Origin: an uncultured Trueperaceae bacterium | GTDB taxonomy: Bacteria; Deinococcota; Deinococci; Deinococcales; Trueperaceae | DNA: 64,000 nucleotides | Reading direction: 5' to 3' | Assembly (NCBI GenBank): GCA_963799485.1 | Contig: CAWCXJ010000012.1 | Location: 137,172 to 201,171, forward strand | Part shown: positions 8,106 to 19,764 of the stretch, in pieces | Layout of the letters: each line of letters starts with the position of its first letter | How positions within the stretch are numbered: position 1 is the first letter of the stretch | Notes under the pieces: generated by a model | Databases searched by the model: none | What the model saw: only the letters and a program-made list of their open reading frames with translations | What the model was told of the DNA's origin: nothing | Translations under genes and position numbers: made by a program

Positions 8106-9383
8106 CTAAAAACTGGCAAACCCCCGCTCCCGCGCCCAGATCACCGCTTCAGTCCGGGAGTGCACCCCGAGCTTGTCGTAGAGGTTGGTAATGTAGTTGC
8201 GTACCGTTTGCTCGGCGAGCCCCAAGTCGGCGGCGATGGCGTCGTTGCTCCGGCCACTCGCGATATGCTCCAACACCTGCTTTTCACGTTTGGTCAGCGC
8301 GGCGACCTCCGCCGTATTAACGCGCTTGCCCGAACGTTTGGCCCGCGCCTGCGCAAGTTTTTCCATCAAGGAGCGGCTGAACCAGGCGGCGTCTTGCATC
8401 ACCTCGCCTATCGCCTGTGTCAGCTCTTCTTCGGACTGTTTGCGTTCGGTAATATCGAAAAACATCTGCAGCAAACAGGGTGCGCCGCCCATCTCGACGG
8501 TCTCGGCGGACGCCAGGATGTCGCGGACGCCGCCCGCTTTCGTCCGAAACTGGAGTTCCAGGTCGTGATAACCCTGAGCGTCCCGTAAGGCTGCCGCTAT
8601 TGCCCTTTGGTCTTCAGGTGAGGCCCACATCCCCAGGGTTCGGTTCGTCTGACCGACGGCTTCGGCAGCGGTGTAACCGGTCAGCTTTTCAAAGCTCAGG
8701 TTGACGTCGAGAAAGCGCCCCTCACCGAGGGTCGTCAGGCAGGTTGCCACCGGGCCGACGCGAAACGCCTGTTCAAACCGCCTTTCGCTGTTCAGCAGCT
8801 GCTCCTTGGCCTTTTCGTGTTCGGCAACTTCCGCTTGAAGTTGCGTGTTGGCGGTGCGAAGGTCCAGAGTCCTTTCGCCGACCCGCGTCTCGAGCTGTTC
8901 GTTTGCCGTGTCTTGTGCGAGGAGCAAGTCGCGTACCTGATACTGCCGTTTGCGGGCAGTTAGCGCCGCGCGCACGACCGTGATGAGCGTCGGGACGCGG
9001 AGGGGGCGCTCGAGCACCGTCGCGGCGCTCAAGTTCCCCAAACCGCCCAGCCCCGACCATGACGCGCCGACCAAGAGCACGAGCGGCAGGTCCGACCAGC
9101 CCGGTTGCGTTTCGGCGGCGCGCTTTACGGCGGCGAGCGTCGCCGCCGTAAGCGCCTCTTCGGTGAGTAGTAGCACCCCCACGCCCGCGCTCAGCTGCGC
9201 CGCGAGGTCGCCGCCGGAGACTGTATCAAAGGCCGCGCACGGCAGACCGGCTGCTGAGAGCGCCCGGCATAACAGCAGGGCGTCTCGTCCCAGCGGAGCC
9301 AAAACCAAAACGCGCTCCGCCGGACTCGTTACCGGCTCCGTTACAGAAGCGGTTCCGGGGCCGGTTGGCGGTTCAGTCGTCAT
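8106..9383 (-). CDS. Pseudo-receiver + coiled coil + PAS/PAC + LuxR-HTH transcriptional regulator
   Basis: N-terminal ERVLVLAPLGRDA...LLTEEAL...WSDLP domain; PAS (FLDVN..FEKLTGY...DITERK); LTKREKQVL...QTVRNY...KLGVHSR. Confidence 0.88.
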   Translation of the reverse strand: MTTEPPTGPGTASVTEPVTSPAERVLVLAPLGRDALLLCRALSAAGLPCAAFDTVSGGDLAAQLSAGVGVLLLTEEALTAATLAAVKRAAETQPGWSDLPLVLLVGASWSGLGGLGNLSAATVLERPLRVPTLITVVRAALTARKRQYQVRDLLLAQDTANEQLETRVGERTLDLRTANTQLQAEVAEHEKAKEQLLNSERRFEQAFRVGPVATCLTTLGEGRFLDVNLSFEKLTGYTAAEAVGQTNRTLGMWASPEDQRAIAAALRDAQGYHDLELQFRTKAGGVRDILASAETVEMGGAPCLLQMFFDITERKQSEEELTQAIGEVMQDAAWFSRSLMEKLAQARAKRSGKRVNTAEVAALTKREKQVLEHIASGRSNDAIAADLGLAEQTVRNYITNLYDKLGVHSRTEAVIWARERGFASF

Positions 9384-10887
9384 CTTGAGCGCGCCGCGTC
9401 AGCAAGTCTTCAGCGCGGCCCTGGTAGGTCGGCGTGCCCGTCAGGACGCCGCTAAACATGGTGATGGGGTCGCCGACCTGAATCCCGGCAGGGGTAATCC
9501 GCAGCTCCCGAATGGTATCTTCGTGCGGCCCGTAACGTTTTTTGATGACCGAAACCGCGAGCCGGAGGTGGCCTTCGGCCTCGAAGTGCCGCAACAGCAG
9601 CACCGTGTCGGCTAGGTAACTGATGTCTAGGGGCTCGAGTTCACCGCTCCCGAGCACGCCCCGTTCGGCCATAATCAAAAACGTCAGGACGCCCTTCCAG
9701 CTCAGGTAGGTGAGCAGCTCGTGAAGTTGCGCGACGAGCAGCGTTTCTTGCGGCATGGCGTTCAAGTAGCCCGTCAAGCTGTCGATGACCACCACCTTGG
9801 CCCCGCCTTTGCCCACGGCCTCCCGGACGATGTGCGCAAACTCGCCGGGTGACAGCTCCCCGGCGTCCACTTGTTGCAGCCGCACTGTGCCCGCCTCGAG
9901 CTGCGGCCTCAGGTCGAGCCCCATTCCCTGCGAGCGCACGTGAAAAGTTTCGGGGCGCTCGTCGAACAAAAACACCGCCGCGCGTTCGCCACGGGCAGCG
10001 GCGGTGTGGGCGTAAAGCGTGGCGAGCGAGCTTTTGCCGGTGCCGGTCGGGCCGACCAGCAAACAGGCGGTGCCGAACTCGAGGCCGCCCCCCAACAGGT
10101 GGTCGAGTTCGCCGACGCCGCTCTCGGCGACCGTCCGCTGCCTCGCGCCGTCGTCAGAAGACGCGGGCGTCTCGAGGCGCGGAAAAACCTCCAGCCCGCC
10201 CGTGCGGATACGAAAGCTGTGGTAGCCGCCGTGGTAGGTCATCCCGCGCCCCTTGTCGAGTTTGAGCCGCCGCCGCACGTCGCCGTAGTCGGGCGCGCGC
10301 TGCTCGAGCAGCAGCGCCCCGTGCGCCACGGTCGCGAGCTGCCGGTCGCCCTGCTCGACCGGTTCACCGGTTAAAAAGAGCGAGGTACACTCGAGGTCGC
10401 TTAAAACCTGCTTGAACATCAGGAGCTGCGAGCGGTAGCGCAGCGGGTTGTCGGTCAGCAGCCGAATCTGCTCGATGGGGTCAAAGACCAGGCGCTCGGG
10501 TTTGGTTCGGGTGATGACCGCCATAATCGCCTCGGTCGTCTCTTTAAGCTCGACCTCGGCGGTGTGAAAGACCGTCTGCTCGGCAGTGATGTAAAGGGCC
10601 GCTTCACCTGCTGAAAACTCGTGGACGGGCATCCCGCCAAGCGACCAGCCGTGCGACGCGGCAATCTCGCGGAGCTCCCGTTCGGTGTGCGACAGCGTGA
10701 TGTAAAGGACGCGCTCGCCGCGCCGTAAACCCTCCAGGAGAAACTGCAAGCCGAGGGTCGTCTTGCCGGTACCGGGCGTACCCTGAACCAGGTACAGCCA
10801 GCCGCGCGGCAAGCCGCCGTTCAGCACCGTGTCGAGCCCGGTCACGCCGGTCGCGGCTTTTTCCGGGCCCGTCTCCATCCGGTTCAT
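9373..10887 (-). CDS. KaiC-like double RecA-fold ATPase
   Basis: Two Walker A motifs (GTPGTGKT, GPTGTGKS), VVIDSL Walker B, DISYLAD, VIKKR; overlaps the downstream regulator. Confidence 0.92.
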   Translation of the reverse strand: MNRMETGPEKAATGVTGLDTVLNGGLPRGWLYLVQGTPGTGKTTLGLQFLLEGLRRGERVLYITLSHTERELREIAASHGWSLGGMPVHEFSAGEAALYITAEQTVFHTAEVELKETTEAIMAVITRTKPERLVFDPIEQIRLLTDNPLRYRSQLLMFKQVLSDLECTSLFLTGEPVEQGDRQLATVAHGALLLEQRAPDYGDVRRRLKLDKGRGMTYHGGYHSFRIRTGGLEVFPRLETPASSDDGARQRTVAESGVGELDHLLGGGLEFGTACLLVGPTGTGKSSLATLYAHTAAARGERAAVFLFDERPETFHVRSQGMGLDLRPQLEAGTVRLQQVDAGELSPGEFAHIVREAVGKGGAKVVVIDSLTGYLNAMPQETLLVAQLHELLTYLSWKGVLTFLIMAERGVLGSGELEPLDISYLADTVLLLRHFEAEGHLRLAVSVIKKRYGPHEDTIRELRITPAGIQVGDPITMFSGVLTGTPTYQGRAEDLLTRRAQDDD

Positions 10888-11216: not shown

Positions 11217-12197
11217 TTGTCGGAGGCCCCGGCGAGCGCTCAACGTGTCAAGGCGCAGAGATTTAGGGAGGGTGTAACTATCAACCGAGCTGTTCTCGAG
11301 GCCACCCTCAACACCCTGAGCGAACCGCTGCTGGTTATCGGTTCCGACCGGCGGGTGACGTTTGTCAACGCGGCGTGGCGACGTTTGCGGGAGCAGCTAG
11401 GGGAACCGGACGGGGATAAGGCGTGGCTCGAGCCGGTTTACGGCACCGCTTACCAAGCCGGGTGCGGAAACCTGCTCAGTAACGAGGCAGCAAGGGGTGT
11501 CGAGGCTGTTCTGGGCGGAACTCTGCCCCGTTACGAGACTGTTTTTAAGTGCGCCGCCGGGTACGAAAGCCGTACCCTCAAACTCGAGGTGTTGCCGCTG
11601 GCACTAGGCTGCCCCGGCGCGCTGCTCAGCTACCATGACCTCACCGAACAGACGCGGCGTGAAACGGAAATCTACAACCTGGCGAACTTAGACCCGCTGA
11701 CCGGACTATTTAACCGGCGTTTGTTCTTCGCCGAGGCCGAACGGGTGCTGGCGCTTGCCGAGCGGCACGGGCACCCTTTTACGCTCCTCTACCTAGACCT
11801 CGACGGTTTCAAGGCGGTAAACGACTCGAGCGGTCATGAAGTCGGCGACGAGGTGCTCTGCAGGGTGGCGGCGAGGTTGGGCGGGTGCCTGCGTAAAAGC
11901 GACCTGTTGGCACGTCTGGGCGGTGACGAGTTTTTGCTGCTGTTGCCGGAAACGGATGAACGGGAGAGTTTGGTAACGGTCAAGCGCTGCTTGGAGAGCC
12001 TTACCCGACCTTTTACGGTTGACGGTCATACCATCACGCTTACGGGCAGTTTCGGGGTTGCCCACTATCCGACTCATGCCCGCACGATTGACGAACTGGT
12101 GCGGCTGGCGGATAAGGCTATGTACCAGGCCAAAGCGAACGGCGGCGGCGTCCGGGTCGTCCCTAGAGCGACTGTTCACCGCAGCGCTTACCACTAA
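11217..12197 (+). CDS. PAS-GGDEF diguanylate cyclase
   Basis: DPLTGLFNRR, DLDGFKAVND, RxxD I-site (RKSD), intact GGDEF, ADKAMY; start codon uncertain. Confidence 0.92.
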   Translation: MSEAPASAQRVKAQRFREGVTINRAVLEATLNTLSEPLLVIGSDRRVTFVNAAWRRLREQLGEPDGDKAWLEPVYGTAYQAGCGNLLSNEAARGVEAVLGGTLPRYETVFKCAAGYESRTLKLEVLPLALGCPGALLSYHDLTEQTRRETEIYNLANLDPLTGLFNRRLFFAEAERVLALAERHGHPFTLLYLDLDGFKAVNDSSGHEVGDEVLCRVAARLGGCLRKSDLLARLGGDEFLLLLPETDERESLVTVKRCLESLTRPFTVDGHTITLTGSFGVAHYPTHARTIDELVRLADKAMYQAKANGGGVRVVPRATVHRSAYH

Positions 12198-12451: not shown

Positions 12452-13537
12452 TTGTCGAGCCTGACCATCCCCCCCGCGAGCATCCTAGACGACCTCCGCA
12501 GCCGCACGCCCGCCGGTATGCTGAGCCGCCAGGAAAAAGACCGGCTGATCGAACGCGGCTTTTTGGGTCTTTACCGCTGGTACACCGCCCGCAGCCAGGA
12601 GACGCGCAACTGGAACCCGGACAAATCGTTCGCCTGGCGCAACCTGCGCAAAGACTTCTCCGAACCGCTGATGCAGATTTTGCAGGGCTTCTTTGCCGTC
12701 GAGTACTACACCCCCGACTACGTCGACGAAATCCTGAACCTGGTACGCCGCTCTCACGGGCGCAGCCACTTCCAGCTCCGCTGGGGTTCCGAAGAAGAAA
12801 AACACGCCGACACCTGGGAGAACTCGCTTTTGTTCTCGCAGCAGCGCACGCCCGGCTTTATCGAGTCGTATAAAGAAGACCTGCGCGCCAGCGTCCACCG
12901 CAGTTTATGGGAAGGCGACGCGCTGCGTAACCTCGTCTACACGGTGTTTCAAGAACGCGCCACCCAGCTCAACTACCTCAACCTGCTCAAGATCGCCAAC
13001 GGCAAGTCGGACAAACCGCAGCACCAGAACGACGCCGACCCGGTGCTAGCGCGTGTGGCCCAGACGATTGCCACCGACGAAGCCGCGCACTACAACTTCT
13101 TTCTAGAAGGCGTCAGACTTTTCTTGTACTACTACCCGCAGCGCACTTTAGAGGCCATCCAAGACGTGATCACGCACTTTACGATGCCGGCGAACAACAT
13201 CGTGCCGGATTGGGACAAGTTCAACTACGCGGTCTACAAAGCCGGGATTTACGGCCCCCGTGAATACGCCCGCGACGTGGTGCAGGTGGTGTTTCGCAAC
13301 CTGGGGATCGAGAGCCGGAAAAAGCTCGAGGAGGGCATCAAAAAAGGCCGCATCGTCCCGAGCAAAGCAGACGACGGCACGCAGCTGACCGCCATCTGGG
13401 ACTCGTTCGATTACGGGCTGGTCGAGGGCGACGTGCAGCGGATTTACGGCAAGATTACCAGGCACGAGCGTGACTTCGGGCGTTATGAGCTTGACCCCAC
13501 CGACTTTGTACCAAATCCCGAGTGGCCGGGGAAGTAA
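12452..13537 (+). CDS. Acyl-ACP desaturase-like ferritin-fold diiron protein
   Basis: Two ExxH motifs (WGSEEEKH, TDEAAH), QERAT, FTMP; AAGGAG RBS before TTG. Confidence 0.8.
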   Translation: MSSLTIPPASILDDLRSRTPAGMLSRQEKDRLIERGFLGLYRWYTARSQETRNWNPDKSFAWRNLRKDFSEPLMQILQGFFAVEYYTPDYVDEILNLVRRSHGRSHFQLRWGSEEEKHADTWENSLLFSQQRTPGFIESYKEDLRASVHRSLWEGDALRNLVYTVFQERATQLNYLNLLKIANGKSDKPQHQNDADPVLARVAQTIATDEAAHYNFFLEGVRLFLYYYPQRTLEAIQDVITHFTMPANNIVPDWDKFNYAVYKAGIYGPREYARDVVQVVFRNLGIESRKKLEEGIKKGRIVPSKADDGTQLTAIWDSFDYGLVEGDVQRIYGKITRHERDFGRYELDPTDFVPNPEWPGK

Positions 13538-15274: not shown

Positions 15275-15925
15275 TTGACTGCTATTACCGACGGGCTTTT
15301 CGTGCTCGATAGCGACTGGCGTTTTACTTTCCTAAACGCACCGGCGGAGCAGTGGTGGCGCGCGCACGAGGAAAAACCGGGCCAAGCAAACCTCGCCGGC
15401 GCAAATGCCTGGGAGACATTCCCGGAAACCGTCGGTAGCGACCTCTACGAAGCTTGCCACCACGCGTCCCGGGCACAGACCCCCGGCAAGCTCGAGCTTT
15501 ACGCCGCGTCCCGCAAGCAGTGGCTTATGCTGCGCCTTTATCCGTTCCCTGACGGGCTTTGTGTTTATTTTGTGGACGTAAGTGACTACAAGCAGCTAGA
15601 ACACGAGCTGCTCGGGGCACTTCAAGAGATAGCTAGCGAAACCCTGTGGTTTAACCATTCACTCACCGATAAGCTGGCGCAAACTGCCGCCAAGACGCGC
15701 AGGGCCGCCGCAAAAGCCGCCGCGCCGCCGCTGACCCGGCGCGAAAAGCAGGTTTTAGAACATATCGCCAGAGGGCACGATGACCGCTACATCGCCGCCG
15801 CTCTGGGCCTTGTCGAGCAGACTGTGCGTAACTACATCACGCGTCTTTACGCAAAACTGGGGGTTCATTCACGCGCTGAAGCCGTCGTCTGGGCGCGTGA
15901 ACGCGGGCTTGGCAGAACCGAATAG
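15275..15925 (+). CDS. PAS + LuxR-HTH transcriptional regulator (5' end possibly frameshifted)
   Basis: AITDGLFVLDSDWRFTFLN PAS start; LTRREKQVL...KLGVHSRAEAVVWARERG; C-terminus paralogous to 8106..9383. Confidence 0.85.
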   Translation: MTAITDGLFVLDSDWRFTFLNAPAEQWWRAHEEKPGQANLAGANAWETFPETVGSDLYEACHHASRAQTPGKLELYAASRKQWLMLRLYPFPDGLCVYFVDVSDYKQLEHELLGALQEIASETLWFNHSLTDKLAQTAAKTRRAAAKAAAPPLTRREKQVLEHIARGHDDRYIAAALGLVEQTVRNYITRLYAKLGVHSRAEAVVWARERGLGRTE

Positions 15926-18852: not shown

Positions 18853-19764
18853 ATGAACCCTAGCGCCACCCTGATCCACAACGCGCACGCCGCCGGTCGA
18901 TTGCGTCTTTCGACCGCGCGCATCATCGAGCTTTTGGCGGAAGCCGGTTACGACGCCGAGCACATTCCGACCGAGAGTGAAGCCGAACTTGCTAACGTCC
19001 TTACGAACCCCGGCGAACTCGTCGTGGCAGCGGGCGGCGACGGCACGATTCGCGGCGTCGCGCTGGCTTTAGCTGCGTCAGGGTCAGCCGTCCCTTTAGC
19101 CCTCGCACCTTTAGGCACCGCTAACAATATCGCGCACACGCTGGGGCTGACCGACGTGACCGAAAACTTGTTGCGTGGCCTCGCTACCCCTTACGCGCGC
19201 CCCTTCGACCTCGGTCTGATTCGCGCGCCGTGGGGTCAGGCGCGGTTTCTCGAGGCGTTCGGGGTCGGCTTGTTCGCGCACGGCATGGAGAAATACAACC
19301 CAGGCGAGGGCAAAAGCCTCTTTCGGGCGGCACAAGCGGCGATTGAAACCCTGACGCAGTACGAGGCGCGCGAGTGGCAGCTCGAGCTCGACGGGCGCGA
19401 CCTCTCGGGCCGTTACCTGCTGCTCGAGGTGATGAACACCACGTCGATGGGGCTGCGCCTGCGCCTCGCACCTGACGCCGACCCGAGCGACGGTCTGTTC
19501 GACGTCGTGCGAGTGCGCGAAGACAAGCGGATCAGCTTCCAGACGTACTTCCGCAAACTTACGGCGGGTGACTTGGAGACCCTGCCCAACATCGACATCG
19601 TTCGGGGGCGGCGGCTCAAGCTTCTTTGGGACGGGCAGCCCCTGCACTTCGACGAAGAGGTGCGCGGCGACGACCCGGCGCGTGTTCCCGGTGGTGAAAT
19701 CGACATCGAGCTGCAGCCGGGCGCGCTCACGTTGTGGCTGCCCGAGCAGGCTCGAGCCCCGTAA
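18853..19764 (+). CDS. Diacylglycerol/lipid kinase family protein
   Basis: AAGGDGT, PLGTANNIA, DGLFDV motifs. Confidence 0.9.
   Translation: MNPSATLIHNAHAAGRLRLSTARIIELLAEAGYDAEHIPTESEAELANVLTNPGELVVAAGGDGTIRGVALALAASGSAVPLALAPLGTANNIAHTLGLTDVTENLLRGLATPYARPFDLGLIRAPWGQARFLEAFGVGLFAHGMEKYNPGEGKSLFRAAQAAIETLTQYEAREWQLELDGRDLSGRYLLLEVMNTTSMGLRLRLAPDADPSDGLFDVVRVREDKRISFQTYFRKLTAGDLETLPNIDIVRGRRLKLLWDGQPLHFDEEVRGDDPARVPGGEIDIELQPGALTLWLPEQARAP

Follow-up and report, generated by a model that had tools for sequence, protein, structure and literature searches.

A KaiC-like ATPase coupled to a pseudo-receiver-PAS-LuxR regulator in Trueperaceae, a putative kinase-free variant of a known KaiC module

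One group of KaiC proteins is systematically followed by a histidine kinase that begins with a conserved N-terminal domain. De Luca et al. (2011; PMC3164672) proposed that this domain is a KaiC-interaction module and showed co-transcription of the two genes. Here we describe a related two-gene cassette from an uncultured Trueperaceae bacterium (assembly GCA_963799485.1, contig CAWCXJ010000012.1), which lies in a stretch of 64,000 nucleotides (the window, whose numbering is used throughout). The cassette encodes a KaiC-like double RecA-fold ATPase of 504 amino acids (positions 9373 to 10887, minus strand) and a transcription regulator of 425 amino acids (8106 to 9383, minus strand) composed of a pseudo-receiver, a likely coiled coil, a PAS domain, a linker helix and a LuxR helix-turn-helix (HTH). 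The start of the regulator open reading frame (ORF) overlaps the end of the ATPase ORF by 11 bp. The module described by De Luca et al. consists of a KaiB-less KaiC protein with SY, TY or SF at the phosphorylation site and a next gene that starts with the conserved N-terminal domain (KaiC + Nt_HK). The SY site, the clade, the lack of kaiB and the N-terminal domain are all found in our locus, but the partner is a histidine kinase in the published module and a PAS-LuxR regulator here, and we therefore consider the cassette a variant of the KaiC + Nt_HK module. The ATPase with the N-terminal domain is an already known module, and the non-kinase output is the new part. The idea of a KaiC-docking module is not new either because it was proposed for the kinases in 2011. 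We found no kinase-free partner of this KaiC subfamily in the literature, which was covered mostly at the level of titles and abstract openings and without the subscription journals and the De Luca and Terrettaz supplements, where non-kinase partners could be mentioned. At the same level of coverage, no work on KaiC in Trueperaceae was found.

Other described systems share part of this design. The group I module of Pseudomonas protegens CHA0 (Terrettaz et al., bioRxiv 10.1101/2022.01.26.477890) also combines an SY/TY site, the N-terminal domain on the adjacent gene and a lack of KaiB, and the window ATPase is 47-50% identical to its top Pseudomonas matches. However, CHA0 has a hybrid kinase as its output, and the regulator that acts downstream of it is treated as an open question in that work, whereas here the HTH is on the same chain, and the residue pair at the catalytic site of the CI domain is SE in Pseudomonas group I and SH in our ATPase. 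In Leptolyngbya boryana, the LbKaiC2 gene lies 3 bp before a kinase gene, and the protein has one CI glutamate and one phosphosite serine and forms a hexamer-like oligomer (PMC11680916); it differs in its kinase partner and in the reported lack of autophosphorylation, and the likeness is one of layout and not of compared subfamilies. The cyanobacterial KaiC-SasA/CikA-RpaA pathway also relays the state of KaiC to transcription, but it requires KaiA/KaiB and phosphotransfer to RpaA, and the catalytic pairs of the circadian KaiC are EE/EE compared with SH/DE in the window ATPase. CikA and KaiA use pseudo-receiver domains too, with that of CikA binding KaiB and not KaiC (PMC12632262). Finally, VpsT of Vibrio cholerae, an atypical LuxR/CsgD regulator that binds cyclic di-GMP (c-di-GMP), combines a pseudo-receiver with a LuxR HTH and has a WLTR segment resembling the WFSR of our regulator. 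The VpsT helix is part of its own receiver, whereas here the corresponding helix follows the PAS domain, approximately 190 residues past the pseudo-receiver, and no KaiC partner is known for VpsT.

The original prediction, made from the letters and ORFs of the window, had described a two-domain KaiC-like ATPase with both Walker A motifs intact and SY at the S431/T432 positions of KaiC, overlapping the gene of a PAS-LuxR protein with an N-terminal pseudo-receiver and no HisKA/HATPase, in a window lacking kaiA and kaiB. All these points were confirmed by domain annotation, by alignment to solved KaiC and by the residue analysis described below. The ATPase was matched twice by the Pfam KaiC model PF06745 (E 2e-67) and, with 226 and 129 bits, fell short of the NCBIfam cut-offs for clock KaiC (408 and 546, respectively). 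The CI domain (10168 to 10863, minus strand) has the Walker A motif GTPGTGKT (G36-T43) and an intact K212/R214 finger, but its catalytic glutamate pair, E77/E78 in KaiC, is replaced by Ser66-His67. The CII domain (9418 to 10125, minus strand) has the Walker A motif GPTGTGKS (G279-S286), the K449/R451 finger and Asp309-Glu310 at the positions of KaiC E318/E319. Catalytic roles have been described for both glutamate pairs in Synechococcus KaiC (PMC9171630), and the state of neither pair had been noticed in the original prediction. Ser423-Tyr424 (9616 to 9621, minus strand) aligns with the S431/T432 phosphosites, and SY occupies these positions in 36 of 55 aligned relatives. The 55 ATPases linked to the pseudo-receiver form one clade that includes the Pseudomonas SY/TY KaiCs (Shimodaira-Hasegawa-like approximate likelihood ratio test [SH-aLRT] 99) and is set apart from the group II and III types in a tree built by a quick method against five long-branch outgroups, which places our protein in the KaiB-less SY/TY subfamily (the 'dark-blue' group of De Luca et al., Pseudomonas group I type). 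In the same tree the 10 LuxR-coupled ATPases cluster (SH-aLRT 99); the label 'HK' was assigned by default and includes 5-6 cut partners. The CI glutamate position is occupied by H in 10/10 LuxR-coupled, Q in 8/8 GGDEF-coupled and E in 2/2 GGDEF-EAL-coupled ATPases. Glutamate loss in CI was rejected as a mark of kinase-free partners because Q is also present in the kinase-coupled ATPases of locus L216 and genome G072. Seven GGDEF-coupled ATPases on a long branch (L024, L044, L045 and L047-L050), all with Gln at the CI catalytic site, carry Glu at the T432 position (SE, TE or RE), possibly a built-in phosphomimic that would drive a sensor-less diguanylate cyclase.

The genome carrying the cassette is 99.99% complete, with 4.63% contamination and a size of 3.66 Mb, and contains a single KaiC-like gene and the N-terminal domain once. 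Searches of the whole genome gave no match to KaiA or KaiB, which were both detected in the Synechococcus control.

The N-terminal domain (approximately residues 23-145; 8949 to 9317, minus strand) gave no Pfam match above the cut-off. A profile built from 32 copies of the domain matched 113 PDB sequences at E ≤1, with receiver structures at a best E of 5e-7, and nearly all of the 60 best-listed of these matches were receivers. The AlphaFold2 model of the domain (predicted local distance difference test [pLDDT] 91, predicted template modelling score [pTM] 0.87) shows five strands and as many helices, the last one long, in the order of the (beta-alpha)5 receiver fold, and superposed on receiver domains with Z scores of up to 15.0 (root-mean-square deviation 2.5 over 128 aligned residues, DgcR REC). 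KaiB and the N-terminal domain of SasA belong to the thioredoxin-like fold class. The top 50 structural matches were mostly receivers and included no entry titled KaiB or SasA, an absence that does not exclude a likeness to them. De Luca et al. (PMC3164672) had compared the N-terminal domain with KaiB/SasA-N and weakly with receivers, and we assign our domain to their 'RtaNt' type through a common profile and not through comparison with the Ramlibacter sequences. The residues needed for phosphorylation are replaced: by profile alignment, the acidic pocket holds A29-P30, and the phospho-Asp, Thr and Lys sites are occupied by E75, V105 and R126, respectively. Among 272 aligned domains, Ala and Pro stand in for the Mg-binding DD pair in 253 and 269, respectively; 212 carry Glu at the phospho-Asp position and 20 carry Asp, and 267 have Arg in place of Lys, while W96 is present in 272/272 and S97 in 271/272. 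The domain thus fits the definition of an aspartate-less pseudo-receiver given by Bourret et al. 2025 (PMC12632262), namely a receiver fold without the phospho-Asp. The family comprises 861 clusters at 50% identity (E up to 1e-30). Three weak matches in another Deinococcota family were discarded as ordinary receivers. A further weak match is at the C-terminal end of a 1124-residue kinase-like ORF of genome G001, which has no KaiC match nearby.

The domain is tightly linked to the ATPase. In a metagenome scan performed with the domain alone, of which the best 80 of 425 confirmed relatives were kept, a kaiC-like gene ended directly upstream in 74/80 loci; the other six lie at contig edges with less than 300 bp upstream, one of them with 238 bp and no match. 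The original prediction had noted that this subfamily is usually followed by a kinase carrying the same domain, in agreement with De Luca et al. (PMC3164672), and in Pseudomonas the domain, matched by the same profile as that of the window, was found on the next gene in 31/31 top-scoring ATPase loci (the 30 best and L131). It was not on the next gene in 11 distant loci of the group II/III type. Three of the group II-type loci (L134, L170 and L171) have a KaiC-like gene, preceded in L134 by a 144-residue ORF, and behind it a kinase whose N-terminus is a coiled coil, and their partner logic appears from this layout to be different from that of the pseudo-receiver type. Among 128 Trueperaceae genomes, 25 contain the ATPase and 28 strong domain loci were found, 27 of which follow kaiC and the last of which sits at a contig start; none was found outside Trueperaceae among 364 genomes of the phylum.

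What follows the domain varies considerably. The survey of LuxR versus kinase partners suggested by the original prediction gave, for the 28 Trueperaceae loci, 12 PAS-LuxR, 11 GGDEF, 2 GGDEF-EAL, 1 HisKA_3, 1 cut and 1 decayed GGDEF output. The PAS-LuxR form is present in five genera (genomes G000, G015, G028, G030, G031, G131-G135, G137 and G141), and the single HisKA_3 output lies behind a frameshifted ATPase. This last locus is one of two decaying cassettes of genome G072 (L208 and L209), which consist of a frameshifted ATPase with an intact pseudo-receiver-HisKA_3 kinase and of an ATPase remnant with a broken pseudo-receiver-GGDEF gene. No kinase or receiver gene was present in the 10/10 LuxR loci examined, over 15-24 kb each in related and thus not independent genomes. 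Among the best 120 homologues of the region, 28 have a LuxR output, 90 HATPase_c and 2 no annotated output. Of the best 150 representatives, local profiles called 98 as kinases, 4 as LuxR proteins free of kinase domains, 1 as a kinase ending in LuxR and 2 as GGDEF/EAL proteins; 45 stayed uncalled, 33 of them shorter than 330 residues, and Pfam identified HWE in 8 of the 12 longer ones, HisKA in 1, SpoIIE in 1 and no output in 2. Fusions of the domain to a SpoIIE/PP2C phosphatase (P0206) and to an all-in-one PAS-HisKA-REC-REC-LuxR protein (P0211) also occur. In many partners the domain sits directly before GGDEF, HisKA_3 or SpoIIE, with no sensor domain in between, and among the LuxR fusions the PAS domain itself has been exchanged (PAS_4 only, PAS_9 only, or both). 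ATPase and domain distances are correlated (Spearman 0.78, 55 pairs), but related genomes inherit the two genes together, and we do not count this as co-evolution. The simplest history would be that the partner exchanged its kinase half for a PAS-LuxR gene and kept the pseudo-receiver next to the ATPase; the domain tree (135 columns) does not distinguish a single from a multiple origin of the LuxR fusion.

Downstream of the domain, a long helix and likely coiled coil (8784 to 8948, minus strand) continues receiver helix 5; helix 110-134 of the model reaches the model end, and the coiled coil is predicted from the sequence. It is followed by the PAS domain (approximately residues 201-315; 8439 to 8783, minus strand; PF13426 E 4.9e-8, TIGR00229 E 5e-16), in which no LOV cysteine motif was seen, by the linker helix (8334 to 8438, minus strand) and by a LuxR/GerE HTH (residues 362-417; 8124 to 8306, minus strand; PF00196 E 5e-21). 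Pfam and NCBIfam profiles for HisKA or HATPase did not match the regulator. The best PDB match of this C-terminal half is VpsT (3kln/3klo, E 3.5e-13). The c-di-GMP-binding motif of VpsT-type regulators has the consensus W[F/L/M][T/S]R, and the W334-F-S-R337 segment of the linker, which aligns with the c-di-GMP-binding WLTR of VpsT, conforms to it, including the position of the binding Arg. R337 aligns with VpsT R134, assuming a one-residue chain offset, and VpsT I141 is replaced by Ala; VpsT needs R134 to bind c-di-GMP (PMC3359988). WFSR occurs in 28/33 domain-bearing LuxR proteins and in 10/10 genome copies, and also in domain-free proteins (16/33 Deinococcota relatives and 28/40 others), which makes it a family trait, perhaps nothing more than what is left of a receiver tail of the NarL/CsgD type. 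The helix and the neighbouring GGDEF genes hint at a c-di-GMP input, although we consider binding of c-di-GMP by the regulator possible but doubtful. The 28/40 others belong to a PAS-LuxR family of Burkholderia, Pseudomonas, Serratia and other bacteria (L084-L130), whose WFSR proteins would be candidates for unrecognized c-di-GMP receptors. At a distance of 4.4 kb from the start of the ATPase, the window also contains a PAS-LuxR paralog (15275 to 15925, plus strand) that closely resembles the regulator in its HTH but has no pseudo-receiver and WFNH in place of WFSR, and which could be a heterodimer partner or a competitor of the cassette regulator.

Altogether, we consider it moderately likely that the ATPase docks on the pseudo-receiver of the regulator and switches DNA binding directly without a kinase. 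This proposal is based on sequence: the overlapping genes, the loss of the DD, D and K residues, the near-obligate linkage, the absence of a nearby kinase, the occurrence in 12 genomes and the output swaps. The ATPase would form a hexamer in which the CII nucleotide or the phosphorylation state of Ser423/Tyr424 may shift as cells change growth phase or meet stress, as has been reported for the group I KaiC of Pseudomonas; because the CI catalytic glutamates are gone, CI would probably be more of a nucleotide-binding scaffold. The oligomer would bind the pseudo-receiver, and the signal would pass along helix 5 and the coiled coil, setting the dimer register of the following output, here the HTH. 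HisKA, HisKA_3, HWE, GGDEF, SpoIIE and LuxR outputs all act, as far as is known, as dimers, and the same mechanism could suit each of them. The PAS domain would provide a second input, with c-di-GMP at the VpsT-like WFSR helix possibly another, and binding could either activate or sequester the regulator. For the P. protegens group I KaiC, strong two-hybrid binding to the full-length kinase was reported, and this protein is phosphorylated twice, with three phosphorylation states in stationary phase (bioRxiv 10.1101/2022.01.26.477890). Complex prediction for our pair (ESMFold2, paired 55-row alignments, ATPase as a monomer) gave a score of 0.50, compared with 0.02 for the best control, which lends the interaction weak support. 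The contacts agreed by at least 97% between runs and the partner pLDDT was at least 81; no interface was returned. The mark applied to this score is reached by 116/157 solved complexes and 2/215 mismatches. The interpretation given in the original prediction was partly upheld: the tie between domain and ATPase held, with six uninformative loci, and binding is weakly supported by this prediction score; the kinase-free character of the system was upheld by the conserved LuxR cassette and its surroundings.

Several observations weigh against direct control by the ATPase. Scores that reach the mark but are no higher than 0.60 come from 18/157 solved complexes and from both passing mismatches, and predictions in the 0.50 band are more often wrong than right unless the pair is likely beforehand. 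The sole published domain-level pull-down, with residues 1-138 of PP_3835, concerns a group III (SS) system (bioRxiv 10.1101/2022.01.26.477890), and we rejected it as proof for this domain because group III-like loci have a PAS-type kinase upstream, a single-domain receiver downstream and no pseudo-receiver domain. LbKaiC2, despite its similar layout, has low ATPase activity and was reported not to autophosphorylate (PMC11680916). The CI glutamate loss is a trait of the clade and is not linked to kinase-free output, and the cassette is absent from 5/5 genomes of the same genus. Finally, the claim is limited by the PAS domain of the regulator and by the occurrence of PAS-linker-LuxR proteins without pseudo-receiver, in four paralogs in this genome and widely in Proteobacteria; since such domain-free relatives exist, this half can probably work alone.

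The regulator's own sensors are also the basis of the alternative that survives best, which we nevertheless consider unlikely: the two proteins bind, but the signal runs mainly from the PAS or c-di-GMP state of the regulator to the ATPase, or else ends in the ATPase as a passive sink, and DNA binding depends on those sensors of the regulator. The PAS domain, the VpsT-like helix, the domain-free paralogs and the lost CI glutamate pair would all agree with this. However, the ATPase is the only evident input of the sensor-less GGDEF, HisKA_3 and SpoIIE partners, and the only signalling output of the cassette sits on the partner. We give only a small chance to a second alternative, in which the pseudo-receiver is the leftover of a kinase gene recombined with a PAS-LuxR gene and its link to the ATPase is historical and non-functional. 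Such a relic could account for the patchy spread (12/128 family genomes, 0/5 of the same genus), the decayed copies in G072 and the expansion of the PAS-LuxR family in this lineage, but not easily for two genes that stay intact and adjacent across five genera at 54-67% ATPase identity, for the invariant W-S, P and R-Q residues retained in the cassette regulators, or for a pseudo-receiver fusion that outlasted PAS exchanges. The conservation of W96 and S97, together with the autokinase chemistry of KaiC proteins, could also mean that the ATPase is no allosteric ligand but a Ser/Thr kinase that acts on its partner, with the WSD motif and its invariant Ser97 as one possible target. We regard this as improbable: KaiC is not known to transfer phosphate outside its hexamer, and the kinase base E318 of Synechococcus KaiC (PMC9171630) is Asp309 here. 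The reading of the domain as an ordinary receiver that takes its phosphate from a histidine kinase encoded elsewhere, for which the receiver fold, the Asp at the site in 20/272 relatives and the approximately 26 kinase-like ORFs of the genome (rough local profiles) might speak, is largely refuted by the sequence of the active site, in which the canonical DD, D, T/S and K residues are replaced, and appears very improbable. Equally remote is a minimal circadian oscillator that feeds straight into transcription, suggested by the two KaiC domains of the ATPase, by its two residues open to phosphorylation at the clock positions and by the hourglass role considered by De Luca et al. (PMC3164672), because KaiA and KaiB have no match, the CI glutamates are lost, the scores are below the clock-KaiC cut-offs and the Pseudomonas relatives track culture age and not circadian cues (bioRxiv 10.1101/2022.01.26.477890).

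If the ATPase does act on the pseudo-receiver, the finding would bear on two questions left open in the literature, namely how non-clock KaiC modules are linked to transcription and what KaiC senses (Terrettaz et al.), and how bacterial pseudo-receivers switch, which Bourret et al. 2025 call a mystery (PMC12632262). Both can be tested with two proteins and a promoter because the candidate switch and its transcriptional readout are encoded together without a phosphorelay. The exchange of outputs behind one domain also turns the 2011 suggestion, made for a kinase family, into that of a general KaiC-coupled input module. More tentatively, and with somewhat less than even confidence, we propose that the pseudo-receiver is a dedicated and portable KaiC-reading input domain of an unrecognized class, with the ATPase as sensor and any dimeric output (HisKA, HisKA_3, HWE, GGDEF, GGDEF-EAL, SpoIIE or LuxR). 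The LuxR form would then be a minimal ATPase-to-promoter circuit, possibly AND-gated by c-di-GMP from a neighbouring cyclase via the VpsT-like helix.

A search for a shared operator upstream of kaiC in the 10 LuxR loci gave a best 10-mer in 7/10, compared with 5-7 in shuffled sequences, and the intergenic region of the window cassette contains no inverted repeat with arms of at least 6 bp. No sigma-70-like promoter was found at the cassette, and terminator-like matches were at chance level. A divergent PAS-GGDEF gene with an intact GGDEF motif (11217 to 12197, plus strand) is a recurrent neighbour, not proven to be part of the system: a GGDEF gene lies within approximately 4.5 kb of the cassette in 9/10 LuxR loci, which are from related and not independent genomes, and 16 GGDEF ORFs were counted in the 3.66 Mb of this genome. 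Farther along the window are an FA_desaturase_2-family gene (12452 to 13537, plus strand) and a DAGK_cat/YegS gene (18853 to 19764, plus strand), which echo neighbours in relatives, although the desaturase family differs. Across 18 compared loci, a convergent fatty-acid desaturase gene was found in six, a DAG-kinase-like gene in three and a Crp-like gene in three, and a GH94/glucoamylase protein of approximately 2,900 residues, which we take to be cyclic beta-1,2-glucan synthase-like, is encoded near the cassette in seven (L296-L299, L301, L306 and L307), with both LuxR and GGDEF outputs. These neighbours hint at envelope or osmotic-stress targets.

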